From an uncultured Planctomycetia bacterium (GTDB lineage: Bacteria; Omnitrophota; Gorgyraeia; Duberdicusellales; Duberdicusellaceae): DNA of 64,000 nucleotides. A program made the position numbers and the translations under genes. Shown piece after piece: positions 24,319 through 56,149 of the stretch; the stretch's first letter is position 1; every line of letters starts with the position of its first letter. The notes under the pieces were generated by a model, which was not told the DNA's origin, made no database searches, and saw only the letters and a program-made list of their open reading frames with translations. Location of the stretch: positions 77,808 through 141,807 of the forward strand of contig CAZWJT010000007.1 in assembly GCA_964634935.1 (NCBI GenBank), written 5' to 3'.

Positions 24319-25117
24319 AACGAACGATCGGTTGAGCGTTTGTCAGTTTTGATAGGATCATTTCTTTTTTTCTTGCGACAAACGAAAGAAATGAATCGTT
24401 CGAAACGTAGTTTTTTTCAACGTCATTTGCGTATTCATCCTGGTTTTGTTCTCGGAGACGCCGCAGTAACAAAGGTAAGTTGCCCATGCGAGCGTTAAAA
24501 AACTCGACCTCAAAACTACTATTTGAAAGCGGGCTGTTTTCGAGGACGTAATTGCATGAGTCAAATACGGAGAGCAATGGACTGATATGTATTACCATTT
24601 TGATCTGCGCATTAGAGATTTCCTTTAACGTTTTTACCCTCTGCTCGAGAGAAGGGCTTTTGGGTTCGAGAATCGGTAAAAGCGGTTTAGGTGCGCAAGG
24701 GAGCGTAAAAAATATTTTATTTTCTGGGTGATAGGTAAGCAGTGCTATGTATTCTGAAATAAGAGGAGAACGGGTGAGTATCGCACAGGGAATGTTGTGA
24801 TCTTTTAGGATTTTTAAAATGCTTTCAGTCACACGAAATTTCTGTTCTACAGGCTGGAAACATTCTGTGGTTGAGCCAAGTAATATTTTTTTTGGTTTAT
24901 AGAGGTTTATTTCGCGTTCGAGAATTGGCTCAATGTTTTCTTTTATTTCTACAAATTCACCCCACGGTTCATTTTGTTTCTTTGCGCTTTTATTGGACTG
25001 TGCATAGCAATATAGGCAGCCAAAAGAACAGCCTCGGTAAGGATTAATGACGAAATCTGCAATGCTAATTTGTGTGGGAGAAAGAATTTTTTGCGACTTG
25101 ATTTTGCGAATGGTCAT
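24266..25117 (-). CDS. SPL-family radical SAM protein
   Basis: 'NPYRGCSFGCLYCYA' is the spore-photoproduct-lyase-family CxxxCxxC signature. Confidence 0.55.
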   Translation of the reverse strand: MTIRKIKSQKILSPTQISIADFVINPYRGCSFGCLYCYAQSNKSAKKQNEPWGEFVEIKENIEPILEREINLYKPKKILLGSTTECFQPVEQKFRVTESILKILKDHNIPCAILTRSPLISEYIALLTYHPENKIFFTLPCAPKPLLPILEPKSPSLEQRVKTLKEISNAQIKMVIHISPLLSVFDSCNYVLENSPLSNSSFEVEFFNARMGNLPLLLRRLREQNQDEYANDVEKNYVSNDSFLSFVARKKEMILSKLTNAQPIVRFVIPEFNNFYSSAIRYD

Positions 25118-26387
25118 AGAGATTGTCGATAAACGATTTTTTATGTCGTATTTTTTCCTTTAAGATAAAATCCACAGCCTTCCGAAGTCTTTTGCGTAAG
25201 TGTTTTTGTGGATGCCACGGAACAGGCGTTTTCATTATATCACTTGCCGGATAGGGGACAAAACAATTCAGTTGCGCTATTTTCGGGATGATTTTCTTGT
25301 TTTCCTTAAGGAAGGCAAGCGTTTCTTGGAAATGAAAATCATCTTCGCCGGGATACCCAACCATCAGGCTTATCTCAAAGAATATTTTTTCTGCGATTAA
25401 GTTCTGAAACATGCATTTTGCATCTTCTTTCTGAAAGTATTTTCCCATTTTATTGAGTATATAATTTGAGCCTGATTCAAGTCCAAGAAAGATATTGATG
25501 CAGCCACTTTTTTTTATGAGTTTTAAGATATTTCTATCCATGTCTGGGCGGATAATCATCTGGGCTTGCCATTTTAAATCTAATTTCCTCCGGTTCAGTA
25601 ACTGACAAAATTTTTCCAGCCATGAGATGTTGAAGTTTAAGAGTGAATCATGAAATGTGAAATTCGAAACGTTGTATTTTTTCGAAAGATATTCCAGATG
25701 GTCTACGACATAGTGCGGAGAATGAAACCGAAATGCTGCTGTCAGGTTTTTTTCAGCACAAAACGTGCATTTTCCAATGCAACCACGGCTTGCCAGAAGC
25801 GCGATTGTTCTGTTGTATCGTTCCGGTTCAATTGAAGAAAGATTTAAGAAAGGAAGCGTGTCGAGATTTTCTATCTCTTGATGCAGATACATTGTTTGTG
25901 GTCGCGGTTTTTCTAAAATATCGAGGAGCGGTTTTTCTCCTTCTCCGATGACTTGAATGCCGCGTTCAAATAGCGCTCTATTGTTCTGGTGATATTGCCA
26001 GAGTATTTCTGGTCCGCCAAAAATTATCCTTGGTGATCCGCAGTGAGCGATTTTCTCCGCAAGCGCGAGAGAGAAGCTGAGATTTCTTCGAGAAAGAGAG
26101 AAGCCGACAAAGCGGTATTTTCTGGCTTTTCTGGAGAGTTCATGAATGTAATATGGAAGTTTATTTTTTGTTTCCGTGAATACATTGTTCTCAAAGGCAC
26201 TGTTTAGGGTATTCCAGTGGAACTTTAGGTGTGGCATGTGTTTTACGATCACGCAGTTTATATCCTGAACGTCGAAGGAAATTTTTTTGTGTTTTAAGAA
26301 ACTTTTAAGGTACGCTATGCTCAGCGGAGGGGTAGAAAGCGGGTGTGGCGGGCAGAGAAGGAGTAAGAAATCCTTCATTTCTTTCAT
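25065..26387 (-). CDS. B12-binding-domain radical SAM protein (class B)
   Basis: The N-terminus is a Rossmann-like, B12-binding-like domain. 'ASRGCIGKCTFCAE' is a CxxxCxxC motif. Confidence 0.6.
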   Translation of the reverse strand: MKEMKDFLLLLCPPHPLSTPPLSIAYLKSFLKHKKISFDVQDINCVIVKHMPHLKFHWNTLNSAFENNVFTETKNKLPYYIHELSRKARKYRFVGFSLSRRNLSFSLALAEKIAHCGSPRIIFGGPEILWQYHQNNRALFERGIQVIGEGEKPLLDILEKPRPQTMYLHQEIENLDTLPFLNLSSIEPERYNRTIALLASRGCIGKCTFCAEKNLTAAFRFHSPHYVVDHLEYLSKKYNVSNFTFHDSLLNFNISWLEKFCQLLNRRKLDLKWQAQMIIRPDMDRNILKLIKKSGCINIFLGLESGSNYILNKMGKYFQKEDAKCMFQNLIAEKIFFEISLMVGYPGEDDFHFQETLAFLKENKKIIPKIAQLNCFVPYPASDIMKTPVPWHPQKHLRKRLRKAVDFILKEKIRHKKSFIDNLYDHSQNQVAKNSFSHTN

Positions 26388-26441
26388 TCGGAACGTTCGG
26401 TTTGTTTTTGGCTAGATTATGTAAAAAGAAGTTAGAGTTTA

Positions 26442-26846
26442 TTAAAGTTCGTTGATTCCAACCGGCGTTAACAGAAAAGTTTTCCTACCCAAAGAGCCGG
26501 CAGGTGTGGCTAAGACATCGTACCATGTTTCATTGGCAATGCAGTCAAATGAGTGTCCTGACGTAATATTGCCTCCGCAGGCGGAGGATCTTAGGTAGCC
26601 TTCTGTCACCAAATAGTCGAAATCCGAGACTTCCCCCCCAGGAGTGAAGCGACCTCCAAAATCAGATGCGTAGTTTTCCAGGGCGGTTTGCATGGCTTTT
26701 AACCTGACCTTCGTTGAAGAATCATTCGCTGTTTTTTTGGCAGAGATCATTACTGGCACCGAGACTGACACAAGTAACGCGAGGATTGCGATAACAATCA
26801 TTATTTCAATAAGGGTAAAGCTTGATCTTCTTTGCATCTTTACCAT
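26442..26846 (-). CDS. prepilin-type N-terminal cleavage/methylation domain protein (pilin/pseudopilin-like)
   Basis: 'SSFTLIEIMIVIAILALL' has the class III signal-peptide architecture with E at +5. Residue -1 is Ser rather than the usual Gly. Confidence 0.65.
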   Translation of the reverse strand: MVKMQRRSSFTLIEIMIVIAILALLVSVSVPVMISAKKTANDSSTKVRLKAMQTALENYASDFGGRFTPGGEVSDFDYLVTEGYLRSSACGGNITSGHSFDCIANETWYDVLATPAGSLGRKTFLLTPVGINEL

Positions 26847-26947
26847 GATTCTTTTTAATTTTAAAATATTTTACCATAAATCGCCATAAGTACTATAAAA
26901 AAAAACTACTTGTGGTACGATAAGAGCAGAAAAGCGTATTTGTAATT

Positions 26948-28081
26948 ATGAAAATTTCCTTGTATCTCCATATTCCGTTTTGTAGCAAAAAATGTGCGTA
27001 CTGTACGTTTTATAGTATTCCGTATCACAGGGATACCGCTAAGCTTTTTATTCAGGTTCTTTGTCGGGAAATCAGAAGGCTCGAAAGCCAGAACTTTCAA
27101 TGTTCAACGATTTATATCGGCGGAGGAACTCCGTCGATTCTGGATTCTGATCTCATTGAAAAGCTACTGGAGCATCTTTCTAGATTCCTTGTAAGCAGCA
27201 AGGAGAATACCATTGAGGTTAATCCAGAGTCTTTCGACTTTCACAAGGCATCATTGTATCGTTCATACGGTTTAAACCGAGTCAGTATCGGAGTACAGAC
27301 TTTTTGCGGCGCGCAGTTAGCTCTTTTAGGGAGAAAGCATTCTTCACGGCAAGCCCAAGAGGCGGTAGCCGCTTGTGTGCAAGCAGGATTTAAGAATATC
27401 AGTGTTGATATGCTTTGTGGTTTACCAGGAAATTTTCAAAAAGACCTGGAAAGTCAATTTCAGGTAATAGTCAAAGCCCCCATTACTCATATTTCCTGGT
27501 ACATGTTATCGTGTGAAAAAGGTACTGAGTTATTTAGGAAGGTGAAAGCAGGCGGTATCCGTTTACCCAACGAAGAAGATGCTGTATGCCAATATTACTT
27601 TGGCCTTGATTTCCTAAAAAATAACGGTTTTCAGCATTATGAGATTTCTAATTTTGCCAAGAATGGTTTTTTGTGCCAGCATAATCTTTGTTACTGGAAT
27701 AAGCAGGCATATGTAGGGTTGGGGCCTTCTGCGGTGTCTTATCTGAATGGCCAAAGAGAACAGAGAGTTGCTTCGGTTGAGGCCTACATACGGAGAGCTC
27801 ATCGGAACGAATCAGTTATTTCCTGTTCTGAAAAACTGAGTTCTTTGCGCCAAGCCCGTGAATATGCCGCAATTTCCATACGAAGAATAGCCGGCATTGA
27901 TTATAAGGATTTTGAGGAAAAAACCTCCTTTGCTTTTGAATGTATCTATAAGAATGAAATATCTGTTTTACGAAAGCAAGGGCTGATTATTCCCAAAAAA
28001 CACAAACGTCTTACGTCTGGAGTTTGTTTAACGAGAAAGGGGATTATTTTCTGTGATTTTGTTTCACGAACACTTGTTTAA
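26948..28081 (+). CDS. hemW: radical SAM heme chaperone HemW (HemN-like)
   Basis: 'HIPFCSKKCAYCTF' is a CxxxCxxC motif. The HemN_C-like C-terminus is present. The protein is about 377 aa. Confidence 0.8.
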   Translation: MKISLYLHIPFCSKKCAYCTFYSIPYHRDTAKLFIQVLCREIRRLESQNFQCSTIYIGGGTPSILDSDLIEKLLEHLSRFLVSSKENTIEVNPESFDFHKASLYRSYGLNRVSIGVQTFCGAQLALLGRKHSSRQAQEAVAACVQAGFKNISVDMLCGLPGNFQKDLESQFQVIVKAPITHISWYMLSCEKGTELFRKVKAGGIRLPNEEDAVCQYYFGLDFLKNNGFQHYEISNFAKNGFLCQHNLCYWNKQAYVGLGPSAVSYLNGQREQRVASVEAYIRRAHRNESVISCSEKLSSLRQAREYAAISIRRIAGIDYKDFEEKTSFAFECIYKNEISVLRKQGLIIPKKHKRLTSGVCLTRKGIIFCDFVSRTLV

Positions 28082-28153
28082 AAACGATATTTATTCGGTT
28101 TTGGTTCATTGACTTTTTTAGTATTGTCTTTATACTACTTTTAGGAGCAAAAA

Positions 28154-29299
28154 ATGCGCATTTTTTGGATCACTGTCTTTATTTTTCTACTTTTCGGATT
28201 TTCTACTTTTCTTCCTGCAGAACAGAAACATGAACTACATGTTTTTTATTCTGAGCACTGCCATGCGTGCATCAAGGTAAAGAAAGAAATAATCCCTCGA
28301 ATAGAAGAACTCTATGGGGAGAAGGTTTCTGTTGTTTTTCTCGAGATCAGCAATCCACAAAATTTAAGCCGTCTCTTGGAAATAGACAATTTAGTCGGCG
28401 CGGCAAAGCCATTCGTTCCTACCATAGTTATAGCCGATAAGGTTTTTATTGGAAAAGATAGTATTGAGCAAGAGCTCCTTCCGTTTCTCGACTCCTTCCT
28501 TACAATGCCACGGCGGACCTCTTTCACGGCAACTTCGCCTATTGACTTGCAGGAATATTTCAAAAAATTTTCTGTACTCACTATTCTTGGAGCTGGCCTC
28601 ATCGATGGAGTTAATCCTTGCGCCTTTACGGTCATAGTTTTTTTTATCTCTTTTCTTACTTTTTACGGCTACAGCAAAAAAGAGCTTGTTTTTATCGGAA
28701 GCGGGTATATCCTTTCAGTCTTTTTAAGTTATCTTCTGATTGGTCTGGGGCTTTTTAAATTTCTCTATGCGTTGTCGGCTTTTTATTTCATCATCAAGAT
28801 TTTTTACTGGTGTATTGCGGGGTTGTGTTTTACCTTGAGCATTTTTTCTTTCTACGATTTTATAAAATTTAAGAAGACCAAAAACCCCGAAGAGTCTTCC
28901 TTAAGACTTCCGGTATTCTTCAAGCAGGCAATTCAGCGTTTTATCGGGAAAAGCTATCGGGGAAGGAGTCGCAAGGCAAATACTATCATCCTTTTCTTGG
29001 GGACTTTTGCGATAGGCGCAGTTATTTCTCTACTGGAAGCAGTATGTACAGGTCAAGTGTATCTACCAGTCATTACGTTTATCATGCGGGTTCCGGAGCT
29101 GCGGGTAAAGGCATTCTTTTACTTTTTCTTATACAATTTTATGTTTATCGTTCCGCTGATTCTTGTTTTTCTCTGTGCATTGTGGGGAGCTACATCGGAA
29201 GATTTTTCGCGCCTTATGAAGCGGTATTTTGGGACGATCAAGGTTTTAATGGGGATTCTGTTTCTAATTTTGGGAGGAGTTATGGTATGGGGCGTATAG
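28154..29299 (+). CDS. thioredoxin-fold (CxxC) domain fused to a CcdA/DsbD-like transmembrane thiol-disulfide transporter
   Basis: The signal/TM segment is followed by 'EHCHAC' in a Trx-like ~110-aa segment. The polytopic domain carries 'GVNPCAF' and 'AVCTGQ', which are membrane-embedded Cys residues typical of CcdA/DsbD. Confidence 0.5.
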   Translation: MRIFWITVFIFLLFGFSTFLPAEQKHELHVFYSEHCHACIKVKKEIIPRIEELYGEKVSVVFLEISNPQNLSRLLEIDNLVGAAKPFVPTIVIADKVFIGKDSIEQELLPFLDSFLTMPRRTSFTATSPIDLQEYFKKFSVLTILGAGLIDGVNPCAFTVIVFFISFLTFYGYSKKELVFIGSGYILSVFLSYLLIGLGLFKFLYALSAFYFIIKIFYWCIAGLCFTLSIFSFYDFIKFKKTKNPEESSLRLPVFFKQAIQRFIGKSYRGRSRKANTIILFLGTFAIGAVISLLEAVCTGQVYLPVITFIMRVPELRVKAFFYFFLYNFMFIVPLILVFLCALWGATSEDFSRLMKRYFGTIKVLMGILFLILGGVMVWGV

Positions 29300-29634
29300 T
29301 TTTTCTTTGGTTTTTATTCCTGGGTGTTTGTTTTGCAGAAAACGCGGACGTGAATGTTCTTGAGTTTAAATTCGGCGAAGTAATAGCGGGCGAACAACTT
29401 GAACACGTTTTTGTACTTCCGCGAGTGCGGGTTATTTCTTCTGTAACTTCATGCGAATGCATTTCATTACATTTTCTTGAGCGCGAAAATGCAACCCTGG
29501 TTAAACTCAAGTTCAATACGGCAGATTACTCAGGAGCAGTCGAACACTATGGTTTCGTAGCTACCGATAAGGGCAACTTCAAGCTTACCATTACTGCCTG
29601 GGTATTTTCAGGGGCTCTTGACGAATCCTCATGA
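29287..29634 (+). CDS. secreted DUF1573-like (Ig-fold) protein
   Basis: There is a signal peptide. 'FKFGEV..G......F...RVISSVTSCEC' resembles the DUF1573 'SCGCT' region. Confidence 0.4.
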   Translation: MGRIVFLWFLFLGVCFAENADVNVLEFKFGEVIAGEQLEHVFVLPRVRVISSVTSCECISLHFLERENATLVKLKFNTADYSGAVEHYGFVATDKGNFKLTITAWVFSGALDESS

Positions 29635-30896
29635 ATCTTCCTTTTCTTGTTTGTGCGGATAGCCGCGGAACTATTTATATTCATCCTTCCTTGCGTGTTG
29701 CGGCAAAAGCGTGGGATGTGTTTTGCGTTCCTTCCACTGCTGATTTTATCCCTGCCCCTGAAGGAACAATTTTTTACTATCTGCCAGGGCGTAATCCTGT
29801 GGGGTTTCATCGGGCAAGACAATCGTTTGAGCATGTTACGTCTTTCCATGGACGGAAGGTATTCGCGGTTTCTGCCTTTCTTCCCCCGGCGTATCTACGC
29901 CTTTATCATCCGGCCTGCTCTGTAGAAAAGTTTCAAATTCTTCCTCTTTGGAATTACATCGCTGCTGGCTGGTATGCGGGAAAATTTTATGTGGCAGCGC
30001 TGCGTATTGACAAAAAACTTCGGCAGAGCCCCCGGTTTTACAGAAATAGGCACTTACTTATTCAGAATATTGCTTCTATGCGCCGATTGTTTTCAAAGAA
30101 TCGTTTACTTCAGCATTTGTCTTTTTGTGCCTTGCGCTATAACTGTCTTGCTGCACAGAATTTCTTCTTACAGCGGTGGGAAGCTCCACTTCCGTGCTCT
30201 CCAGCATGCAACAGCAGGTGCATCGGTTGTTTATCGCTCCAGAAGGATTTTTGCGCTTCTCATGAGAGGATTTGTTTTGTGCCGACCGTTGAAGAAGTAT
30301 CGCAGCTTGGCATTTTTCACTTAAAAAGGGCATCAGAGGCAATCGTAAGTTTTGGGCAGGGTTGCGAGGGGGAACCTCTTTTAGAGGAGGATTTACTCGT
30401 TCATTCGATCCGGGCGATGCGGCAAGCGACATCGAAAGGAACGATCCATATGAATACAAACGCAAGCCGTCCTAAGAGCGTTGAACGGGTGTGCACCGCC
30501 GGGATTAATTCGATACGGGTTAGCTTAAATAGCGCCCGAGAAGATTCATACTGCCGGTATTTTAGGCCAGTTGGATATACTTTTTCCGATGTACTGGAAT
30601 CAATACGGATAGCCCGCAAGAAGAAAGTTTTTGTTTCGGTTAACCTCCTGACGTTTCCCGGATTTACCGATAGCTATCAGGAGGCAGAGGCTCTTTTTAC
30701 GTTTATCGCCAGAGCTGATATCCAGATGGTCCAGATGCGCAATCTCAATATCGATCCGGAGTATTATATGAGAACATTGCAGTGCAAACCAGGAAGTTCA
30801 ATGGGGATGCGTACGTTGGTGGCGCAGTTGCGCAAAAAATTCCGCCGGTTGAAAATCGGTTACTTTAATGTAAGCCGGAGTGAATTTGCTGGTTAA
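29631..30896 (+). CDS. radical SAM domain protein (function unknown)
   Basis: 'CNSRCIGC' is a CxxxCxxC motif. 'GQGCEGEPLL' is a GGE-type SAM motif. An N-terminal ~180-aa domain is of unknown function. Confidence 0.5.
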   Translation: MNLPFLVCADSRGTIYIHPSLRVAAKAWDVFCVPSTADFIPAPEGTIFYYLPGRNPVGFHRARQSFEHVTSFHGRKVFAVSAFLPPAYLRLYHPACSVEKFQILPLWNYIAAGWYAGKFYVAALRIDKKLRQSPRFYRNRHLLIQNIASMRRLFSKNRLLQHLSFCALRYNCLAAQNFFLQRWEAPLPCSPACNSRCIGCLSLQKDFCASHERICFVPTVEEVSQLGIFHLKRASEAIVSFGQGCEGEPLLEEDLLVHSIRAMRQATSKGTIHMNTNASRPKSVERVCTAGINSIRVSLNSAREDSYCRYFRPVGYTFSDVLESIRIARKKKVFVSVNLLTFPGFTDSYQEAEALFTFIARADIQMVQMRNLNIDPEYYMRTLQCKPGSSMGMRTLVAQLRKKFRRLKIGYFNVSRSEFAG

Positions 30897-30992: not shown

Positions 30993-33900
30993 ATGAATAA
31001 AAATCTACAGGACGAAAAATTTTCTGCTTTTCTGGATCCTTTTACCGGCGCCTACAACCGCAGTTTCCTTTTTCATATCTTGCCTGAAAAAATAGAAGAG
31101 ACGAAAACCAAAAAACAAAAATTTGCCCTTTTCATGATTGATTTGGATAATTTTAAGCACGTCAACGATACCTATGGGCATCTTGTAGGCGATAAAGTTC
31201 TTCGTGATATCGCGATGGTAATGCGTAAAGCATTGCGTGAACATGATTTTTTAATCCGTTACGCCGGAGACGAATTTTCGATTATCTTGAGTGATATTGA
31301 TTTACCAATTGTCTATAAGGTCGCCGACCGCATCTTAGAAGAGGTGCGCAGTATGAAGATTCAGACTGACCGGGGAGTGATTCAGCAGACGCTGAGTATG
31401 GGTTTTTCCCTTTTCCCGGCGGATGCAGAAACCCAGGATGCTTTAATCGATTGCGCGGACCAGGCGCTTTATCTTGCGAAAAAACGCGGTAAAAATAGTT
31501 ATGCTTCTTTTAAAGAAGTTGACATCAGCAACATCAGTCTCGAGGCCGGAATGCGTTTTTTCCCCTGCGCAAAATTTGTCGATAGAAAAAATGAGGCAAA
31601 GCTCGCTCACGACAAAGTTGCTCGGTGTGCGAAAGGTGGAAAGCTAGGAGGTATTATTGTTGTTGGAGAAACCGGCATCGGGAAAAGCCGTTTCCTGAAA
31701 GAGACTTCGCTCAGCGCAAGCGCGAGCGGCATGGAGGTTGTTTCTTTCGGGGCTTATTTGAAAAACAGTCTTGCTCCGTATTTTTTCTTGGTGCGTATTT
31801 TTGAAGATTATTTAAAGCAACGTGACGATTCGAATGGAACTTTTTCTCAAGAGATTATCGGGTCGCTCGAGAAGAACCAAAGAGAGATACTGAAGTTTTT
31901 TCTTCCTAAGATAGGGAAATCATCATTGAATGACCGGGATATTATTCGTGATGTTTCCGCGGTTTATGAAACATTTTCCTGTTTTCTTGCCGCTGTGATT
32001 CAGAAAACAGGAAAGCCGATATTTCTCTCCATTGATAATACGCAATATATCGATAATCATTCCTTGAAGTTTTTCTCCTATATCTTAAACAATAAGAAAA
32101 ATCTCAATATCCTGCTCTGGCTTTCGTTCGTTTATCCACTTCCACAGGGAGTATATGATATTAAGCTGACCGAGAAGTTTCTGGAAGATTTGAAGACCAT
32201 TCCTGAAATTTCAATCGTTCATCTGACAAATATTTCCGCTGGCGATACCCGTGATATGATTGCGGCTATTTTCTCCGGACTTGAGCATAACGAAGAATTT
32301 TGCCATTTGGTTTTTGAGATTACCAAAGGAGTTCCCTTTTTTATTGAGGAACTTTTAAAGTTTCTTTTGGAAAACTCCTGTATTTATTTTGAAAACAATG
32401 AGTGGCAGTTTAAGAATCAGATGAAAGATTCAATTCCCCGATCGCTTGAAGAGATCATTCGAACCCGGTTAAAAAGCCTCGATCCAGAACTTCGTGAAGC
32501 GATCCTGATTTCTTCGGTTATTGGAGAGGATATTAAGCCTGAAATTCTAAGCCAAATCCGCAACGCCAAGGAAGGTGATATCCTAGAGCTTCTTGATAAA
32601 GCGAAAAAGCTGAAGTTGGTTGGCGAGGAAAGCGGCAGTTTTAATTTTTTGAATGATACGGTTCGTAATGTGGGTTTGAGTGAAATACCTGAGGCCCGGC
32701 GGAAAACTATCTATCATAAGGTTTCAGATGTCTTATTTAATTACTACCGGGATAATCTAGAAAGCATGACGTCACAATTTATCGCGATGTTCAAGAAGAC
32801 CGAGAATATGGAGCAGCTGAGGAGTTTCACTGATATCGTTACTCAGAAGTCATCAGAGGTATTCCAGCCAGACCTTATTCTAAAATATTTGGAAGAAGTG
32901 CGTAAAGAAGATTCTGGTACGACTGCGGAACTTGAACAAATGGCTTCCCTCGACGAAACGCGGCTTCCTGAAGTCGTAGAAATTCTGGCAATTTTTCAGG
33001 GGGCAATGAAGAACTTTCGGTTATATCCCAAGGGCAGTAATTTACGAGAAACAATCTTAGAGAAATTTTTAAATACCTTAAAGAAAAATCTTGAGCGTTA
33101 TGGTCTCATCGTTATTTCAGAGGCTGAGAAATCGCTCGTTATTAATGATAAGCGCATTCCGCCTCGGGTTGCGAAAGGCATTGATTTGGACGCTATCGCA
33201 AAAATACTCATTAATAGGAATATCAAGTATATTTCTTTTGGGCGCGAGGTAACAAAAGAAGAGCTTGAGAAGTTTTTCGAAATTGTTTCGCTTGATCCTG
33301 AGATGCTTTTGGCTAACGGAGGATTTAACAAGTTACTTTCTGACCAGGGCATCGTGAATGTTACCGCAAAAAAAGGCGTCTATTCTCCAATCTCACGAGA
33401 TACGCCCGCAGGGGGAAAAGTGCGAGATAAGGTAGAGAATATGATGGTGCTTGATTTTATTCTCGGTAAAGTATCGGGGAAGGATCTGCAAAGTTCACAA
33501 CTTGCGGATGCGCTTATGAAGAACCCCAACCTCCTTTCGCAGCAGTTTCTCGACGCGGTGGAGTCGGCCCAAAAGATCGATCAATACTCGGATAAAATTG
33601 ATATTCTCTCGCAAAGCCTCTCGAAATTATATAATTTAGCAGATTTGGTTGAATCTGGAAAGATTACCCCGGAGCAATTAGGTGCGAACAAGGAAAAAGA
33701 AGCCTCCCCAGATGTAAAAGAAATTACTGATGAGCAGAAGGAGAAAAAAGTACCCGATGCAAGTTTCGTAGAGTCAGAAAAAACAAACAAGGAACCAGAG
33801 AAAAAACAACCGAAAAAGATTGTTTCCGAAGAGAAGAAAGAGATGAAGGTTGCGGAATCTTCTGAGGCGTCCGCTGAAGCAAAGATGCGAAATCTTGCCG

Positions 33901-35249
33901 ATAGCATTAAGCAGGTTTTTATGGGTTTTGATGCTGTTTCGCGGTTGAATCTGATCCGGAACATCGTGGACTTAAAAGACCCGGCAGTGAAAATATTAGG
34001 AACTATGACAGCAGAAGAAATCGTTGAAATGTTTTCTCAGGCACATAAGCAAGGAGCTTCTCTTTTCTTAATCAGTGAAGCGATGAAAAAAATAGAGTAT
34101 GTTTTTGAAGGGTTGGGCCGGGGGGACGAGCTTGTTCAGATTAAACAGAAGAGCAGCGGTATCTTTGGAGATGATCAAGAATATCTTTTCGATATGATGG
34201 GCGACGATAATCTTTGGAAAAGCCTGAATTTAAAAAAGAAGATAGACGCTTTTACCAAAGTTACATCGGAAGAATTTACTCAACTCAATAACGAAATACT
34301 TGCCGGACTCATTGTTGAGATGATCGAAAAGAATGAGAGTGATGAGTTTAAGAGGTTTTACGGAGCCTGTAAGAAGATAGCCCTTACTTCCGATAAGCTG
34401 AAAGAAAAGATCACGGCAGTTTATACTCAAGCGTTTACTTCGATCTATGCTCCGGGAAACGAGAAAATAAGAATCTCAGCCGTTATCTGCCTTTTGAGTA
34501 TTCTTTCCGACGCGCATGATGAAACAGACAGGGAAGCGTTGACTTTTGAGTTTATGCTTCTAAAAGATATTACCGAAAAACTGGGTTTCTATCAGTTTAA
34601 AAGAAAGGAAGAACGAATTGATTTCTCGGAGAAGATAAACTTTTTCTATCTGTTGTTTGAGCTTTTTAAGGAAAAAAGAGCAAGTTACGAATCTTTGGGC
34701 GATGTTGATAATGTTGCCATGATCAATAACTGGGTTAGTCTTTTCCATATTGAAGATATCGCATTCTCGCTCTTTGATTTCCATTTAAAAGGTATTATTA
34801 ATCTTGAAATTGTTGAAGAAAACATACGTATCGAAGCATATCTGCTCATGGAGAATTTTTTAGAGAAGATTTTTTCCGTGTTTACCAAGCAGCTGACGGA
34901 GGCAAACGATCCTTTTAATAAATTTGTTTTGGTGAGAAAGGTAAAAGATCTTTTCTCACATCTTACCGTTTCAGGCATTGAGAAGCTTCTTCAGCTGATT
35001 TACGATGTGTGCGTGCAGATTCCCGATGTTGTTGATCTTTTGGCATATGTGAACATCTCTCATCTGCAAAAGTTTTTACACGAGCGTTTCTTTACTTGGG
35101 ATGAACGGAGAAAAACCAAGATTATTGAAATGATCGGTATCTTGAAGATGAAGGATCTAGAAGGTTTCCTTCAGACGGTTTCAGAGCGTGAGTACAGCCC
35201 GGCGCTCAAGAAGTATGTCGCGCGTATTCGGGAGAACTTAGCGGGGTGA
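30993..35249 (+). CDS. GGDEF (diguanylate-cyclase-type) domain fused to STAND/AAA_16 NTPase and ~900-aa helical C-terminal region
   Basis: In the GGDEF domain the I-site 'REHD' is intact and the A-site is 'AGDEF'. Further in are the P-loop 'VVGETGIGKSRFL' and the AAA_16-typical 'GVPFFIEELL'. A K/E-rich low-complexity linker lies at about 33686..33890. Confidence 0.7.
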   Translation: MNKNLQDEKFSAFLDPFTGAYNRSFLFHILPEKIEETKTKKQKFALFMIDLDNFKHVNDTYGHLVGDKVLRDIAMVMRKALREHDFLIRYAGDEFSIILSDIDLPIVYKVADRILEEVRSMKIQTDRGVIQQTLSMGFSLFPADAETQDALIDCADQALYLAKKRGKNSYASFKEVDISNISLEAGMRFFPCAKFVDRKNEAKLAHDKVARCAKGGKLGGIIVVGETGIGKSRFLKETSLSASASGMEVVSFGAYLKNSLAPYFFLVRIFEDYLKQRDDSNGTFSQEIIGSLEKNQREILKFFLPKIGKSSLNDRDIIRDVSAVYETFSCFLAAVIQKTGKPIFLSIDNTQYIDNHSLKFFSYILNNKKNLNILLWLSFVYPLPQGVYDIKLTEKFLEDLKTIPEISIVHLTNISAGDTRDMIAAIFSGLEHNEEFCHLVFEITKGVPFFIEELLKFLLENSCIYFENNEWQFKNQMKDSIPRSLEEIIRTRLKSLDPELREAILISSVIGEDIKPEILSQIRNAKEGDILELLDKAKKLKLVGEESGSFNFLNDTVRNVGLSEIPEARRKTIYHKVSDVLFNYYRDNLESMTSQFIAMFKKTENMEQLRSFTDIVTQKSSEVFQPDLILKYLEEVRKEDSGTTAELEQMASLDETRLPEVVEILAIFQGAMKNFRLYPKGSNLRETILEKFLNTLKKNLERYGLIVISEAEKSLVINDKRIPPRVAKGIDLDAIAKILINRNIKYISFGREVTKEELEKFFEIVSLDPEMLLANGGFNKLLSDQGIVNVTAKKGVYSPISRDTPAGGKVRDKVENMMVLDFILGKVSGKDLQSSQLADALMKNPNLLSQQFLDAVESAQKIDQYSDKIDILSQSLSKLYNLADLVESGKITPEQLGANKEKEASPDVKEITDEQKEKKVPDASFVESEKTNKEPEKKQPKKIVSEEKKEMKVAESSEASAEAKMRNLADSIKQVFMGFDAVSRLNLIRNIVDLKDPAVKILGTMTAEEIVEMFSQAHKQGASLFLISEAMKKIEYVFEGLGRGDELVQIKQKSSGIFGDDQEYLFDMMGDDNLWKSLNLKKKIDAFTKVTSEEFTQLNNEILAGLIVEMIEKNESDEFKRFYGACKKIALTSDKLKEKITAVYTQAFTSIYAPGNEKIRISAVICLLSILSDAHDETDREALTFEFMLLKDITEKLGFYQFKRKEERIDFSEKINFFYLLFELFKEKRASYESLGDVDNVAMINNWVSLFHIEDIAFSLFDFHLKGIINLEIVEENIRIEAYLLMENFLEKIFSVFTKQLTEANDPFNKFVLVRKVKDLFSHLTVSGIEKLLQLIYDVCVQIPDVVDLLAYVNISHLQKFLHERFFTWDERRKTKIIEMIGILKMKDLEGFLQTVSEREYSPALKKYVARIRENLAG

Positions 35250-35253: not shown

Positions 35254-35706
35254 ATGGTGTTAACCCGGAAAAAAACAGCGCTTGTCGGGAAAATTCTTGT
35301 CGAAGCTGGCAGAATTACCGAAGAACAATTACGCGAAGCATTGTTACTGCAGAAGAATAAGTACCCCGATAAGAGTCTGGGCGCGATTCTTGTGTCGCTT
35401 GGGATCATCACCGAAGAGCAGATTTATACTGCGTTGACTCTGCAGTATGCGTATCCCTATATTTCGGTGAGTAGATATAAATTTCAGGAATCGGTTCTGG
35501 AACTCATTCCCAAAGAAGTTGCTATGAAGTATAATTTGGTGCCACTCGATAAATTTAAGGATATTTTGACAATCGCCATGTTGAACCCATTAGACCGGGG
35601 GGCAATTGAGAAAATAGAAGAAATCACCGGATTAAAGGTGCGAATCTTTGTGACCCCTCCCAAAGAATTGCAGGATGCGCTTGAGCTTGTCTATAAAAAC
35701 AAATAA
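35254..35706 (+). CDS. stand-alone T2SSE_N / MshE-N-type c-di-GMP-binding domain protein
   Basis: There are two tandem copies of the MshEN consensus: 'LVGKILVEAGRITEEQLREALLLQ' and 'SLGAILVSLGIITEEQIYTALTLQ'. The rest matches a GspE N-terminal domain. Confidence 0.7.
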   Translation: MVLTRKKTALVGKILVEAGRITEEQLREALLLQKNKYPDKSLGAILVSLGIITEEQIYTALTLQYAYPYISVSRYKFQESVLELIPKEVAMKYNLVPLDKFKDILTIAMLNPLDRGAIEKIEEITGLKVRIFVTPPKELQDALELVYKNK

Positions 35707-35708
35707 TC

Positions 35709-37001
35709 ATGCCAGAACAGCCAGACAATATTCCGAATCCCAATATCGAAAATGCAATGCCAGCGCCGGATGTTGAGATCCAAAAGGATGAGAAGGAATT
35801 TGTTGAAGTTACTTCGAGCGATGATATCGGAGCTATCGACAGTTTTGTCGTAAAGACCGTAAAAAAAATATTAACTGACGGTATCGATAAGCGTTCCAGC
35901 GATATATTTATTGAACCGCTCGAAGAAGCCATCCGCGTTCGTTATCGAATCGATGGTCTTTTAATAGAAGCAGGGCAGTACCCGCTTGAATATCTTTCTG
36001 GATTTGTCAGTCGAGTGAAGGTGCTTTCTAATTTGGATATCGCTGAGCATCGTTTTCCTCAAGATGGACGATTTCGGATAAAATATCGTGAGCGTTTCAT
36101 TGATTTTCGCGTTTCAACCCTGCCGAGTAATGTAGGAGAAAAAGTTGTATTGCGTGTTTTAGATAAAGGGAGTATTAATCTCGATATTGATGGTTTGAGT
36201 TTTGATGCGGAAACGGTTGACATACTGAAACGCAATCTTAAAAAACCGTATGGGATGATTCTTGTCTGCGGACCGACTGGATCCGGGAAGACTACAACTC
36301 TGTATTCTTGTCTTCGTTTTATTGATTCAGTGGAAACAAACATCATTACGGTTGAGGATCCTATTGAATACCAGTTTTTTGGCATCAATCAAGTCGCTGT
36401 CCAGGAGCATCTGGGTCTTACTTTTGCCGCTTCACTTCGTTCAATTTTACGGCAAGATCCGGACATAATTCTTGTTGGCGAAATTCGTGATTTTGAAACA
36501 GCGGACATTGCCGTGAAAGCTTCGCTTACCGGACATCTTGTTTTGAGTACTCTCCACACTACGACTTCAACGGGTGCGATTGTGCGGTTTATCAATATGG
36601 GGATTGAGCCATTTTTGGTTGCTTCTTCTTGTCTTGTTGCCGCTAGCCAAATGCTTCTCAGGAAGTTGTGCACGCACTGTAAGGAGCAGGTTGATTTGCC
36701 GGATGCTCTGAAGGCGGAATGTGAACGGAACAAGCTGCACTATACAGCGACAAAGATCTATAAACCGGCAGGGTGCCGTTTTTGTAACAACACAGGCTAC
36801 TTGGGGCGTCTCGGTATTATAGAAGCCGTGGAGATTACCCCGGCGATTCGGGAGCTTTTGATCCGTAAGGCAACTGAGAAACAACTCAGAGAAGCTTCTA
36901 TCCAGCAAGGAATGAAGAAACTGCGTGAAAAAGGGTTGGAAAAAATTCTTGATGGTTCAACGACTCTTGAAGAAGTCGTACGTACAACAAGCAGAGATTA
37001 A
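35709..37001 (+). CDS. GspE/PilB-family secretion ATPase core (N2 + C domains), MshE-like, lacking the N1 domain
   Basis: The motifs are Walker A 'GPTGSGKTTT', the Asp box, Walker B and the His box. The tetracysteine 'CTHCKEQ...CRFCNNTG' is present. The gene starts 3 nt after the stop of the MshEN gene. Confidence 0.7.
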   Translation: MPEQPDNIPNPNIENAMPAPDVEIQKDEKEFVEVTSSDDIGAIDSFVVKTVKKILTDGIDKRSSDIFIEPLEEAIRVRYRIDGLLIEAGQYPLEYLSGFVSRVKVLSNLDIAEHRFPQDGRFRIKYRERFIDFRVSTLPSNVGEKVVLRVLDKGSINLDIDGLSFDAETVDILKRNLKKPYGMILVCGPTGSGKTTTLYSCLRFIDSVETNIITVEDPIEYQFFGINQVAVQEHLGLTFAASLRSILRQDPDIILVGEIRDFETADIAVKASLTGHLVLSTLHTTTSTGAIVRFINMGIEPFLVASSCLVAASQMLLRKLCTHCKEQVDLPDALKAECERNKLHYTATKIYKPAGCRFCNNTGYLGRLGIIEAVEITPAIRELLIRKATEKQLREASIQQGMKKLREKGLEKILDGSTTLEEVVRTTSRD

Positions 37002-37006: not shown

Positions 37007-38626
37007 TTGATGGAAAAGAACGCGTTTCCCCACACGGCATCCAGCGAGCGAGAAACTGATGAGTTTTTGTCTATTTGCCAGCAAGTTCAGTTTCCCCCTA
37101 TAGATCTGGCGCGATACGATATTCCCAAAGACGTTTTAAGCTTTATTCCAGAGCGGATTGCTCGAGCCTATCAGGTAATCCCTATTTCAAGGCTTGAGAG
37201 TATGTTGGTTGTCGCGGTTGCTGATCCGTTCAATGTTTTTGTTCTTGATAACTTGCGCCTTATTACTCAGAAAGAAATAAGCCCAGTGATCGGTTCTATT
37301 TCCCAAATTATTGACGCGATTGACCGGTGTTACGCTTTGCGTGAGGAAGGTTCAGGGGCTGATATTTCTGAAGATTCCGGCGAGAGCACTGACGGAAAAG
37401 GATTGGAGGTAGCTTCATTTAAAGAAGAGAAGTTTAATCTTGAAGAAGTTGCCAAGCTTTCCAAAGAAGCAAAGGTTGTCGGTTTGGTAAATGAGATTTT
37501 AAAAGAGGCAGTGAAGCGCCGTTCCAGCGATATTCATATCGAACCTTTTGAAACTATCGTTCGGACTCGCGTGAGAATTGACGGAATGCTTCATACGATT
37601 AAGGAAACAGAGAAGAAGTATCAGGAAGCGATCATTGCCCGACTAAAGCTCATGTCGCGTCTCGATATTACCCAGCGAAAAATTCCGCAGGATGGACGTT
37701 TTGGTTTTAAAGTTGAAGGGCGTGAGATCGATGTTCGTGTTTCCGTTCTTCCTATCGATTTTGGCGAAAAAATAGTAATGCGTCTTTTAGACCGGGCAAG
37801 CATTAATCTGTCGCTGGAAAAATTAGGATTTTCTCCGTATGCACTTGACGCATTTCAGAAGGCGATTGCTAAGCCGTATGGAATGATACTGTTAACGGGT
37901 CCTACGGGCTCCGGAAAGACAACGACGCTCTATACGATTCTCACGCATTTGAATACAATCGATAGGAATATAGTGACCATAGAAGATCCCGTTGAGTATA
38001 ATCTCAAAGGTATTACCCAGGTTCCCGTGCGCCACGATATCGGCCTTGATTTTGCTGGTATTTTACGTGCTACTTTGCGTCAATCTCCCGATATCATCAT
38101 GGTGGGGGAAATGCGTGATTTTGAAACAGTTGATATCGCGATGAAGGCTGCTTTGACTGGGCATATCGTTCTCAGCACTCTTCATACGAATGACGCTCCT
38201 TCCGCTATCACTAGGCTTTTGAATATGGATATCGAGCCATTTTTGATTTCTTCATCAATTAATATGATTGCTGCGCAGCGTTTAGTACGGAGAATTTGTC
38301 CAAAATGCAAGGAAAGTTACAAAGCAGATCTTACCACCCTTGAAGATGTTCCTGCCCAATATAGGAAGAAAGACGCAACACTTTATAGGGGCAAAGGATG
38401 TAATGAATGTGCGAATGGATATAAAGGTCGAGGAGCGGTTATCGAGGCTCTTATGTTTGACGATGAAATACGCGAGATGATCATGAAAGGTAAATCTCTC
38501 GATGAGATCAGAAATTACGCCAAGAAAGATGGCGGCATGAAAACCCTGCGCGAAGATGCAACTGAGAAAGTTTTACGGGGCGAGACGACTCTTGAAGAAA
38601 TGATCCGGGTAACCGTGGAGTTTTAG
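37007..38626 (+). CDS. pilB: type IV pilus assembly / type II secretion ATPase (GspE/PilB family), full length
   Basis: A T2SSE_N domain precedes Walker A 'GPTGSGKTTT' and the tetracysteine 'CPKCKES...CNECANG'. Confidence 0.8.
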   Translation: MMEKNAFPHTASSERETDEFLSICQQVQFPPIDLARYDIPKDVLSFIPERIARAYQVIPISRLESMLVVAVADPFNVFVLDNLRLITQKEISPVIGSISQIIDAIDRCYALREEGSGADISEDSGESTDGKGLEVASFKEEKFNLEEVAKLSKEAKVVGLVNEILKEAVKRRSSDIHIEPFETIVRTRVRIDGMLHTIKETEKKYQEAIIARLKLMSRLDITQRKIPQDGRFGFKVEGREIDVRVSVLPIDFGEKIVMRLLDRASINLSLEKLGFSPYALDAFQKAIAKPYGMILLTGPTGSGKTTTLYTILTHLNTIDRNIVTIEDPVEYNLKGITQVPVRHDIGLDFAGILRATLRQSPDIIMVGEMRDFETVDIAMKAALTGHIVLSTLHTNDAPSAITRLLNMDIEPFLISSSINMIAAQRLVRRICPKCKESYKADLTTLEDVPAQYRKKDATLYRGKGCNECANGYKGRGAVIEALMFDDEIREMIMKGKSLDEIRNYAKKDGGMKTLREDATEKVLRGETTLEEMIRVTVEF

Positions 38627-38669: not shown

Positions 38670-39866
38670 ATGGCATTTTATATTTATGAAGGAACGAACG
38701 CTCAGGGTAAGAAAGTAACCGGACGCATTGAAGCTTCCTCTGAACAGGAGGTCATTAATAAACTGCGTACGGAAAATGTTGCGATTCTTGATGTAAAAGA
38801 AGCGCGCACAACGAAATCTTCTGGTAAAGTTGGGATTAATGATCTTGTTGTTTTCTCGCGCCAATTTTCTTCGCTTATTTCCGCTGGTATTCCGCTTGTC
38901 CGGGGGCTTACTATTCTTGTTGAACAGGTGGAAAACAAGGCCCTCAAAGATATAATCCTTGCCATCAGCAAGAATGTCGAAGCCGGCGGTTCTTTAGCGG
39001 AAGCTTTGGCGAAATATCCGAATGTGTTTTCCCCGTTATTCATTAATATGGTTAATGTTGGTGAATTTAGCGGGAGTTTAGATGTTATGTTGGAGCGGCT
39101 CGCGATGTATCTTGAGTCTTACAGTAAGCTGGTTAAGAAGGTCCAAGGTGCTATGATGTACCCAATCGGCATCGTCATTATCGCAACCTTGGTCGTTTCG
39201 GTGATTATGATCTTTGTTGTACCGGGATTTACGAAAATTTTTGAGACTTTAGGAGGAGATCTTCCTCTGCCGACCCAGCTTCTGGTGAATTTCAGCGATT
39301 TTTTGCGTTCTTATTTTTTGTTTATTTTGTTGGGTCTTGGTGGCGCTGGTTTTGGTTTAGGCAAGTTCATTAAAACTCCAAAAGGGGTAGAGATCGGCGA
39401 AAAAATTAGAAGCAAGGCGCCGATTATCGGACCTCTCTATACAAAGATGGTTCTCGCCCGTTTTACTAAGACTCTCTCAACGCTTGTGAAAAGCGGAGTT
39501 CCCATCTTAAATGCTCTTGGTATTTCGGGGAAAACCTCAGGAAGCACAAAATTTGCTGTTGTTGTTGATAAGATTAAGGAAGAAGTTTCTCGTGGTAAGC
39601 GTATTGGGGATAGCATGAAAGAGGCAAAAATATTTCCGAATATGGTAGTCAGTATGATTGGGGTAGGCGAAGAAGGTGGTGATTTATCGGGCATGCTTGA
39701 GAAAGTTTCGGAAATATACGAGACAGACGTTGATAATGCCATTTCCAGCTTAATGTCGCTCCTTGAGCCCTTGATTATCGTTTTTCTTGGAGTAATTATC
39801 GGGGGTATTGTTGTGGCATTGTTTCTGCCTATACTTAAGATGCCCACTCTTTTACAACAGTCATAA
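38670..39866 (+). CDS. pilC: type II secretion system F-family platform protein (PilC/GspF)
   Basis: There are two T2SSF repeats and three TM segments. The N-terminus 'MAFYIYEGTNAQGKKVTG' is typical. Confidence 0.8.
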   Translation: MAFYIYEGTNAQGKKVTGRIEASSEQEVINKLRTENVAILDVKEARTTKSSGKVGINDLVVFSRQFSSLISAGIPLVRGLTILVEQVENKALKDIILAISKNVEAGGSLAEALAKYPNVFSPLFINMVNVGEFSGSLDVMLERLAMYLESYSKLVKKVQGAMMYPIGIVIIATLVVSVIMIFVVPGFTKIFETLGGDLPLPTQLLVNFSDFLRSYFLFILLGLGGAGFGLGKFIKTPKGVEIGEKIRSKAPIIGPLYTKMVLARFTKTLSTLVKSGVPILNALGISGKTSGSTKFAVVVDKIKEEVSRGKRIGDSMKEAKIFPNMVVSMIGVGEEGGDLSGMLEKVSEIYETDVDNAISSLMSLLEPLIIVFLGVIIGGIVVALFLPILKMPTLLQQS

Positions 39867-40153: not shown

Positions 40154-41467
40154 ATGAAAAAGCTAATATTAGCTTTAATTCTTACACTTGCTATCTCTGG
40201 ACTCGCAGTTGCCGCCGTGAATAATATTAAAGTAAGCGGTGACATCACTGCGCAGGCAATTACTCGCGATTTATCTTTAGGCGAAAATAGCATTGCTGCA
40301 AAAGATTCAGAAGATTTCTTGCTTTCTCAGGTTCGTCTGCGTTTTGACGCTGATTTATCTGAGAATGTTGCGGCAGTAGTTCAGCTCATCAATGAAAGAG
40401 TTTGGGGTGATGAAGGTTCTACTGACACCGACATTGATCTTGATCTTGCCTATGTTACCATGAAGGAATTTATCTATGCTCCGTTGACGCTTACTGTTGG
40501 ACGTCAGAATCTTCGCTTTGGAAAAGGCTTAATCGTTGGCGATCCTGACACAGACAATAACGTTGCTGCTACGGGGTCTAACTTATCGAACATCGCAGAT
40601 GATTTATCTCTGCGCAAGGCATTTGACGCAATTCGCAGCACATTAGAGTACACGCTTGCTGACAAACCGCTCATATTGGACATCATCTATGCAAAGGTAG
40701 AAGAGAATAATACTGATCAGGAAGACGATGTTACTCTTTGGGGTGGCAACGCGAATTACAAGTTAAGCGACAAGGTTACTGGCGAGATGTATTTCTTTGC
40801 CAAAGACCAGGACAGAGTGCTTGTAACTGAAGACGAAAACGACGTTGTGTACGCTATTGGTTTACGTGGCGATATTCAGGCAACAGAAAAGTTAGGCATC
40901 TATGGTGAATATGCTCGTCAGTTTGGTGATCGGGCAGAAGCCGCAACAAATCACAGCCATGTTGAAGCATTCGCAGTACAAGTTGGTGGCGACTATAAAT
41001 TTATGGACGAAAAGAACTCACTTATGGGTTTAAGCTACACCTATCTTTCTGGCGATAAGGACACGGGAGACAATTCCTACAAGGCTTGGAATCCTATGTT
41101 TGAAGACCAGAGAGTTGGCGAAATCGCCAATATTCTTTTCGACAACACCAATATGTGGTATATCAAGTTGAATGCATCAACGATGCCACGCGAAGACATT
41201 ACCGCAGGTTTAGACATTTATTATCTGAAACTTGCTCAGCTTGATTCTGACGCATTGTCAGGTAATGGAATTATCACTGTTGGCAATGAGCAGGAATTTG
41301 GCAACAAAGAGCTTGGTTGGGAATTTGATGCATCATTGAAGTATGACTATACTGAGGATGTGCAGCTTGGCTTAATCGGCGGCTGGTTCGTTCCAGGAAG
41401 TCATTTTGCTGACAGCAACGACAATACCGCTTATTCTATCCGCGGTACTTGCAGCGTAAACTTCTAA
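40154..41467 (+). CDS. putative outer-membrane beta-barrel protein (porin/alginate-export-like)
   Basis: A signal peptide is followed by D/G/T-rich alternating amphipathic strands. The C-terminal Phe ('...CSVNF') is typical of OMPs. Confidence 0.45.
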   Translation: MKKLILALILTLAISGLAVAAVNNIKVSGDITAQAITRDLSLGENSIAAKDSEDFLLSQVRLRFDADLSENVAAVVQLINERVWGDEGSTDTDIDLDLAYVTMKEFIYAPLTLTVGRQNLRFGKGLIVGDPDTDNNVAATGSNLSNIADDLSLRKAFDAIRSTLEYTLADKPLILDIIYAKVEENNTDQEDDVTLWGGNANYKLSDKVTGEMYFFAKDQDRVLVTEDENDVVYAIGLRGDIQATEKLGIYGEYARQFGDRAEAATNHSHVEAFAVQVGGDYKFMDEKNSLMGLSYTYLSGDKDTGDNSYKAWNPMFEDQRVGEIANILFDNTNMWYIKLNASTMPREDITAGLDIYYLKLAQLDSDALSGNGIITVGNEQEFGNKELGWEFDASLKYDYTEDVQLGLIGGWFVPGSHFADSNDNTAYSIRGTCSVNF

Positions 41468-52405: not shown

Positions 52406-52461
52406 TCTTTCAAGAGAGTTTTTTCCCGAGCTTCAAAATTTCATAACGATTACGATAACAA

Positions 52462-55356: not shown

Positions 55357-55357
55357 C

Positions 55358-56143: not shown

Positions 56144-56149
56144 TTTATT

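Follow-up and report, generated by a model that had tools for sequence, protein, structure and literature searches.

A free-standing MshEN domain encoded beside an N1-less PilB-type ATPase in a conserved Omnitrophota operon

Receptor and motor in described systems

The closest described relatives of the gene pair reported here are the ATPases of the MshE/PilB/PilF type. These belong to type IV pili (T4P) and type II secretion systems (T2SS) and include Vibrio cholerae MshE, the PilB proteins of Myxococcus xanthus and Chloracidobacterium, and Thermus PilF. The pair lies in a 64,000-nt stretch of contig CAZWJT010000007.1 from an uncultured Omnitrophota bacterium; this stretch at its full length is called the window, and all window positions refer to it. 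The first open reading frame (ORF1) encodes a stand-alone MshEN domain, which is homologous to the N-terminal N1 domain (N1D) of these ATPases and is a predicted receptor for cyclic dimeric guanosine monophosphate (c-di-GMP). The second (ORF2) encodes an ATPase without N1, here called ATPase A. The modules are the same as in the MshE/PilB/PilF-type proteins, namely MshEN and the PilB-type N2 and C-terminal domain (CTD), and the operon context with a PilC/GspF platform gene is likewise found here. Unlike in those systems, receptor and motor are separate genes and separate polypeptides, and this state is conserved over a large Omnitrophota clade. The Arg that begins each c-di-GMP-binding motif is replaced here by Leu and Ser, and the cassette adds a further ATPase that has one half of N1 (ATPase B) as well as a dedicated gene for a GGDEF-STAND protein.

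In the PilZ-FimX-PilB system of Xanthomonas and Pseudomonas, as is proposed here, it is a separate small protein, and not a domain of the ATPase itself, that passes the c-di-GMP signal on to the extension ATPase (PMC11656802). The adaptors of that system, the PilZ domain and the EAL domain of FimX, bind the N1D that PilB retains. At the present locus, in contrast, the putative adaptor is itself homologous to N1D, a domain that the ATPase lacks.

PilT, PilU and other N1-less family members of about 350–430 aa also have no N1D. An N-terminal GSPII/N1D domain on the same polypeptide is the feature that separates extension from retraction ATPases in a 2024 review (PMC11656802). Unlike PilT and PilU, ATPase A is nearer to PilB; its residues 19–429 align to residues 154–563 of M. 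xanthus PilB (E 2e-123, 415 bits), whereas PilT matches it with E 4e-31 and at most 112 bits over partial coverage. It also has the PilB/GspE tetracysteine and a full N2 domain. We considered ATPase A as a retraction ATPase of the PilT/PilU kind and rejected this, as it is far closer to PilB and the tetracysteine is present.

Two extension ATPases, PilB and TfpB, act on one machine in Acinetobacter baylyi (PMC11656802), and two PilB-family ATPase genes similarly lie beside one platform gene here. The ATPases of the present cassette differ from that pair in their N1 regions (none in one, half in the other) and in being accompanied by a free-standing N1.

Proteins made of MshEN domains only are also found in databases. 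Among 44,752 profile matches, single-domain proteins of 148–158 aa and proteins with 2–7 repeats occur often; this survey was ranked by summed repeats, so that it shows such proteins to be common and does not give the size of the present family. Metagenome proteins with up to 7–8 tandem MshEN repeats occur (P0140, P0141 and P0144, about 1320 aa), and many MshEN-only proteins have 150–470 aa. The single-domain proteins resemble ORF1, but in the literature searched we found none described as an obligate partner, in one operon, of a PilB-type motor that lacks N1.

A 2024 review of PilB cofactors covers PilZ, FimX and MshEN domains in cis, and holds no free-standing N1 with an N1-less PilB (PMC11656802). 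We found no description of a split PilB or of a functional stand-alone MshEN partner in the literature searched, most subscription journals being outside its coverage. The parts, MshEN, the PilB-type ATPase and GGDEF, are well known; the free MshEN beside an N1-less PilB-type motor appears to be a new arrangement. The role of N1/MshEN in pilus-extension ATPases has been called poorly understood (PMC11656802).

A receptor and a motor that are naturally separate across many species allow the receptor to be titrated, mutated or omitted while the motor is left untouched. To our knowledge, all evidence on how c-di-GMP binding is relayed to the catalytic core is from proteins with the receptor domain in cis. 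Omnitrophota is a phylum with very few cultured members. Our reading of the locus, judged from sequence comparison, is that of a genuine two-gene operon in which the ATPase lost its N1 beside an older free MshEN gene and the MshEN protein probably acts in trans; we give this account as a whole a probability of about 0.7.

Conservation of the two-gene state

The MshEN domain is found by Pfam in ORF1 only (60.9 bits, cut-off 23.1) and the T2SSE domain (PF00437) in ORF2 only (427.7 bits). The nucleotides TC alone separate the TAA of ORF1 from the ATG of ORF2, whose frame is −1/+2 relative to that of ORF1. This geometry, which had been read from the letters in an original prediction for this DNA, is confirmed by the coordinates of the two ORFs (Table 1). 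The same prediction described an acidic start of the ATPase core, and the first 46 residues indeed hold 12 Asp or Glu against 2 Lys or Arg. Its figure of 580 aa for the two products together, against 539 aa for the next gene, is also correct. It left a choice between an authentic arrangement of two polypeptides and a recent pseudogenisation, and proposed an alignment of orthologues as one way to decide.

The two-gene state is kept in 13 distinct Omnitrophota loci, with identities of 41–68% (the window, L001/L009, L002, L011, L012–L018, L065 and L066). The contexts of these loci were classified with profiles built for this analysis, such as an MshEN profile, and the MshEN search of the genome collection was based on an alignment of five sequences. 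The order of the cassette is GGDEF-STAND protein, stand-alone MshEN, N1-less ATPase A, ATPase B with the C-terminal half of N1, and PilC/GspF. The cassette of L011 is on a contig of 1.82 Mb (CP070807.1). In 13 of 13 N1-less loci the gene next to ATPase A on its upstream side is that of MshEN, and the two often overlap.

Homologues of the two products lead to the same picture. ORF1 has 17 detectable homologues, all of them short (124–213 aa); no full-length ATPase is among them, and those with a named source are all from Omnitrophota. The best 68 or so homologues of ORF2 (55–75% identity) are without exception T2SSE-only proteins of 388–438 aa. A full-length homologue (578 aa) first appears at rank 69, and full-length relatives never exceed 57% identity.

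The junctions between the two genes are very different from locus to locus (Table 1). Each of the three relative frames and each stop codon (TAA, TGA and TAG) is represented, so no single indel or recoding event accounts for all loci. The spacing ranges from −20 to +147 nt, and the proposal that the two genes are coupled through their short spacing is thus not borne out, the 2 nt seen here being one value among many.

Comparison across the loci shows the two-gene state to be ancient and, as judged from its conservation, under selection. The view that the pair consists of two real, separately translated genes of a conserved Omnitrophota operon, neither frameshifted nor a pseudogene, is strongly supported by these sequence data, and the suggestion of a recent frameshift or nonsense mutation falls with the 13-locus conservation and with ORF1 homologues that are all short stand-alone proteins. 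For annotation, this means that gene pairs of this kind should be left as two genes and not be marked as frameshifted pseudogenes.

The genes of the cassette are tightly packed in the window. The GGDEF gene ends 4 nt before ORF1, ATPase B starts 5 nt after ORF2 and the T2SSF gene follows 43 nt further. Scans for promoters and terminators over the cassette gave counts equal to those in shuffled controls.

ATPase B had been taken for an intact GspE, which it is not. It has only the C-terminal, alpha/beta half of N1 (positions 61–148 of the MshEN profile), and the four-helix bundle that binds c-di-GMP is gone. This state is common to all loci of the N1-less clade, including L001, L002 and L011–L018. 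The PilC/GspF gene is kept downstream in L001, L002, L011–L018 and L066. L065 is without T2SSF, and two proteins resembling beta-helix and Phage_depo_C proteins (621 and 655 aa) follow ATPase B there instead (8855–12882).

An orthologue of the GGDEF-STAND protein is directly upstream of the stand-alone MshEN gene wherever a contig of the N1-less clade extends that far. Its GGDEF domain is at the extreme N-terminus of 1418 residues, with the output domain first, an unusual order for a diguanylate cyclase. The part beyond the AAA_16 nucleoside triphosphatase domain, about 1000 aa, is helical and rich in Lys and Glu and has no Pfam match; weak HEAT_2 matches occur in the orthologues. The active site has the variant RYAGDEF, with an RxxD I-site five residues upstream, and these are invariant in 10 distinct aligned orthologous sequences. 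A cyclase with AGDEF is active in V. cholerae (PMC3974145). The cassette points to a conserved c-di-GMP module in Omnitrophota that would consist of a GGDEF-STAND protein, MshEN, two ATPases and a platform protein.

Table 1. Features of the cassette in the window, and junctions between the MshEN and ATPase A genes across loci
Feature	Position	Strand	Details
GGDEF-STAND protein	30993..35249	+	1418 aa; Pfam GGDEF 142 bits (12-168), AAA_16 41.9 bits (195-373)
MshEN gene (ORF1)	35254..35706	+	150 aa; TAA stop at 35704-35706
MshEN motif I	35281..35352	+	ORF1 residues 10-33, LVGKILVEAGRITEEQLREALLLQ
MshEN motif II	35374..35445	+	ORF1 residues 41-64, SLGAILVSLGIITEEQIYTALTLQ
Junction of ORF1 and ORF2	35694..35711	+	T AAA AAC AAA TAA tc ATG; ORF2 frame open from 35697
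ATPase A gene (ORF2)	35709..37001	+	430 aa; ATG at 35709
ATPase B	37007..38626	+	539 aa; TTG start; Pfam MshEN 74.5 bits (30-113), T2SSE 449.5 bits
PilC/GspF platform protein	38670..39866	+	398 aa; last cassette gene; Pfam T2SSF 215.9 bits, two repeats
Junction, window and L014			TAAtcATG (2 nt)
Junction, L001			4-nt overlap
Junction, L002			13-nt spacer containing AAGGA; ATPase frame has a stop there
Junction, L011			147-nt spacer with its own AGGAGG
Junction, L012, L013, L015			same frame, 3 or 15 nt apart
Junction, L016-L018			14-20-nt overlap, +1 frame

The predicted receptor, the motor and their history

ORF1 is a complete MshEN/GSPII domain (T2SSE_N, PF05157), comprising the four-helix bundle and the alpha/beta subdomain. 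Residues 9–147 align to the N1 domain of Geobacter PilB (phmmer, E 8e-21), and the N-terminal domain of V. cholerae MshE (5HTL) is matched with E 9e-14 (phmmer). The AlphaFold2 model of ORF1 (predicted local distance difference test score 85) contains helices at residues 5–17, 23–35, 42–48 and 54–65, followed by the beta-alpha subdomain. Its best Foldseek match is 5HTL, the structure of MshE with c-di-GMP (template modelling score 0.76–0.80, root mean square deviation 2.5 Å, 137 columns).

MshEN domains that bind c-di-GMP contain two 24-residue motifs, in which Gly, Leu and Gln residues contact the ligand (Wang et al. 2016, PMC5013675). The published motif, present in two copies, is RLGxx(L/V/I)(L/V/I)xxG(L/V/I)(L/V/I)xxxxLxxxLxxQ, with [RKPN] as a relaxed first position (PMC5013675). 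Motif I of ORF1 retains the equivalents of Gly11, Gly18, Leu25, Leu29 and Gln32, and has Leu as the equivalent of Arg9. Motif II retains the equivalents of Leu39, Gly40, Gly47, Leu58 and Gln61; Leu54 is Ile and Arg38 is Ser. The spacer between the motifs has 7 residues rather than 5, and the alignment of Geobacter PilB has the same 7. Across the 11 stand-alone proteins from the N1-less clade that were aligned, the equivalents of Gly11, Gly40, Leu25, Leu29, Gln32 and Gln61 do not vary. Binding of c-di-GMP by isolated MshEN domains is documented in vitro (PMC5013675), and ORF1 is a predicted c-di-GMP receptor that is likely to bind the ligand.

In the sister genomes, where the ATPases are full-length, the N1 domains fused to ATPases A and B are substituted at these positions (G11T/N/I/L/Q, G40S/R/F/V and Q61E/H), unlike the adjacent stand-alone MshEN protein, which retains the contact residues. 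In XpsE, substitutions of this kind abolish binding (PMC5013675). Fused N1 domains without the equivalents of Gly11, Gly40 and Gln61 are encoded in L003 (6604–8340), L007 (6452–8188 and 8198–9919), L019 (6489–8192), L026 (1192–2922 and 2939–4633), L063 and L064. Because the sister fused domains lost the contact residues while the adjacent stand-alone protein retains them, the comparison suggests a shift of c-di-GMP sensing to the free protein that preceded the loss of N1.

ATPase A belongs to the PilB/GspE-type assembly ATPase family. It consists of a 46-residue acidic and poorly conserved N-terminal tail, the N2 domain and the catalytic CTD. The translation contains the Walker A motif GPTGSGKTT, the Asp box VEDPIEY, the Walker B motif DPDIILVGEIRD and the His box TGHLVLSTLHT. 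The tetracysteine CTHC...CRFC, a Zn site, is kept. No MshEN domain was found in ATPase A with Pfam or with the profiles built for this analysis, and only the acidic tail precedes N2.

The history of the ATPases was examined with a neighbour-joining (NJ) tree of 173 ATPase cores and 30 bootstraps. In 30 of 30 bootstraps the 95 N1-less ATPases, ATPase A of the window included, form one clade, to which a clade of 37 full-length Omnitrophota ATPases is sister; L003_A, L005_A, L007_A and L026_A are among the 37. A stand-alone MshEN gene is directly upstream of the full-length ATPase A in all seven loci with full-length ATPases that were examined (L003, L005, L007, L019, L026, L063 and L064). Six of these seven ATPases fall inside the sister clade; L019_A, which is cut by the contig end, was left out of the tree.

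Stand-alone MshEN proteins score 97–116 bits against each other and 48–90 bits against most fused N1 domains. The MshEN protein of the window scores 108–116 bits against the stand-alone proteins of loci with full-length ATPases and at most 90 bits against the fused N1 domains there. In an NJ tree of N1 domains the stand-alone proteins group together, with weak bootstrap support at the deep nodes (64% for the clade from N1-less-type cassettes).

Loss of N1 beside an older free-standing MshEN gene, rather than a fresh fission, is most likely on these comparisons, because loci with a full-length ATPase A already have the upstream stand-alone gene. For the same reason the term split, as used in the original prediction, is probably wrong as history. 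In the proposed order of events, the free-standing MshEN gene would have come first, ATPase A would then have lost its own N1 once, and ATPase B would have lost the N-terminal half of its N1, which binds c-di-GMP. The stand-alone protein would thereby have been left as the sole complete MshEN domain of the cassette. Both losses are seen only in genomes with a free copy.

A GGDEF gene adjoins the stand-alone MshEN gene upstream in both the N1-less and the full-length clades, in two different architectures. In loci with full-length ATPases the neighbour is usually a HAMP-GAF-GGDEF gene. Those of L003 (4571–5992) and L005 (4561–5997) have GDDEF for GGDEF and no RxxD, and may be non-catalytic; this motif comparison covers L003 and L005, the equivalents in L063 and L064 not having been aligned. 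L064 has REC-GGDEF and a GGDEF-AAA_16-HEAT gene resembling that of the 1418-aa protein at 8467–11734, downstream of two full-length ATPases. This arrangement indicates that linkage of the STAND-type GGDEF protein to the cassette predates the loss of N1.

A further locus, L021, from an uncultured bacterium (binchicken_co261_19), has a frame of 371 codons with two tandem MshEN domains (192–1304). It is followed by a separate N1-less T2SSE gene (1344–2624) and then a T2SSF gene, apparently an independent split of the same kind.

Possible action in trans and its alternatives

We infer that the MshEN protein acts in trans on ATPase A, because the two genes are neighbours in each of the 13 N1-less loci, because N1 or its N-terminal half has been lost only where a free copy exists, and because the ligand residues are present only in that copy. 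In the proposed mechanism, the AGDEF-type GGDEF domain would make c-di-GMP or report on it, and the stand-alone MshEN protein would bind c-di-GMP through its two 24-residue motifs. It would then act as a detachable N1, docking onto or recruiting ATPase A, and possibly ATPase B, at the PilC platform. Assembly of a pilus or pseudopilus would be gated by this docking. In a wider form of this proposal, a single MshEN protein fed by the dedicated GGDEF-STAND protein would be a shared detachable N1 for both ATPases in a large Omnitrophota clade. We hold this wider form as tentative and lean somewhat against it. If true, it would be natural proof that N1D can be a separate regulatory subunit, and would offer a tractable system for the role of N1D. 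Should the trans model fail, the locus would be an ordinary conserved operon with a domain-loss event.

Several observations weigh against the account given here. Both motif-initial Arg residues are absent from ORF1 (Leu10 and Ser41), so that the pattern with strict Arg and the one with relaxed [RKPN] both failed, and Ser at the first position of motif II is without tested precedent. The activity of the GGDEF-STAND protein with its AGDEF site is deduced from a single precedent, that in V. cholerae. Pilin, PilM, PilN, PilO, PilQ and secretin genes were looked for in the window and none was found, so that T4P and T2SS are indistinguishable here. The stand-alone MshEN gene also adjoins ATPases with their own N1, and its target therefore need not be ATPase A. 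As to history, the stand-alone proteins of L003 and L005 score 110–113 bits against L003_A and L005_A, as high as pairs of stand-alone proteins, and the node uniting all stand-alone MshEN proteins in the N1-domain tree has at most 7% bootstrap support. The order of events consequently rests mainly on the ATPase tree and on synteny. With regard to the first residue of the motifs, the GSPII-B domain of Thermus PilF, which has Lys and Leu where the motifs would begin with Arg, binds c-di-GMP at 6 nM, and putting Arg back lowers its affinity (PMC11731258).

The main rival to action in trans is that the free MshEN protein has another target. It would serve more generally as a c-di-GMP adaptor, with for instance the GGDEF-STAND protein, ATPase B, PilC or some unlinked protein as its partner, and ATPase A would work without any N1, perhaps in another role such as that of a second, constitutive or antagonistic motor. 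The adjacency to ATPases that have their own N1 fits this rival, as does the GGDEF gene, which is the most constant neighbour of MshEN on the other side. The absence of N1D is the mark of retraction as opposed to extension ATPases in the 2024 review (PMC11656802), and MshEN-only proteins with 1–7 repeats are common in metagenomes. We nevertheless consider it unlikely. The MshEN gene is immediately upstream of ATPase A, often overlapping it, in every N1-less locus; ATPase A is PilB-like and not PilT-like (415 against 112 bits, with the tetracysteine present); and the loss of N1 from ATPase A and of the N-terminal half of MshEN from ATPase B is confined to genomes with a free copy.

A true gene fission, with ORF1 as the surviving, severed N1 of ATPase A itself, would account for the order of N1 followed by N2 and CTD, which is collinear with full-length PilB, and for the acidic linker-like tail at the start of ORF2. 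The poor support for the deep branches of the N1-domain tree leaves room for it, and L021 appears to hold an independent split in which a tandem (MshEN)2 protein precedes an N1-less ATPase. Fission is nonetheless improbable for the window. In the loci with full-length relatives of ATPase A, a stand-alone MshEN gene is already present directly upstream (7/7 loci), and the MshEN protein of the window matches such proteins better than it matches fused N1 domains. It also shares their intact Gly and Gln contacts, whereas the fused A-type N1 is degenerate. We therefore continue to prefer loss of N1 beside an older free MshEN gene.

A frameshift, a nonsense mutation or a homopolymer error of sequencing or assembly in one full-length mshE/pilB gene is very unlikely in this genome, because the catalytic motifs of ORF2 are intact and the product is listed under two sources; the exact products of 150 and 430 aa each appear in both NCBI and Logan. 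The two ORFs are just 2 nt apart, and an insertion of 1 nt anywhere in 35694–35705, for example A5 to A6 at 35695–35699, gives a fused ORF of 582 aa, whose hypothetical product would read ...LVYKKQIIMPEQ... across the junction. A single-base correction of this kind had been named as the result that would overturn the two-gene reading. It does exist formally, but it is not diagnostic of an artefact, because the ORF2 frame is open only from 35697 and the comparative data make the split ancient. The 13 loci have unrelated junction geometries, and several junctions cannot be fused by one indel, such as that of L002 with its stop in the ATPase frame and that of L011 with its 147-nt spacer. No full-length orthologue exceeds about 57% identity, and the N1-less clade was recovered in all 30 bootstraps.

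Programmed −1 frameshifting at U_AAA_AAC (35694–35700), which would yield some fused protein besides the two separate products, is just as improbable. The heptamer resembles a slippery site from which a −1 shift enters the ORF2 frame, open from 35697, but its first position is U and not A, no stable RNA structure that could stimulate a shift was found in the 90 nt from 35701 onward (z = +0.47), and orthologous junctions are in the same frame, in +1 or widely spaced. As a conserved mechanism it was rejected, there being no downstream structure and no conserved junction geometry.

The wider surroundings of the cassette in the window contain genes of other kinds. Two overlapping ORFs upstream (28154..29299 and 29044..29634) have no Pfam match. 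They lie in a radical-SAM cluster within 22034..30896, just upstream of the cassette, with genes at 24266..25117, 25065..26387 and 26948..28081; the gene at 29631..30896 in this region immediately precedes the GGDEF gene. An SPL-like protein and a glycosyltransferase are encoded in the region too. In L003, L005 and L063 the GGDEF gene is likewise preceded by a radical-SAM gene. Directly downstream of the PilC/GspF gene is an outer-membrane porin of the Alginate_exp family (437 aa, 40154..41467), ahead of rplU and obg. A polysaccharide biosynthesis cluster occupies 1..16396, with glycosyltransferases, a heparinase II/III-like protein, an asparagine synthase-like protein, a UDP-GlcNAc 2-epimerase and a flippase, and purine biosynthesis genes are found at 51095..59834.

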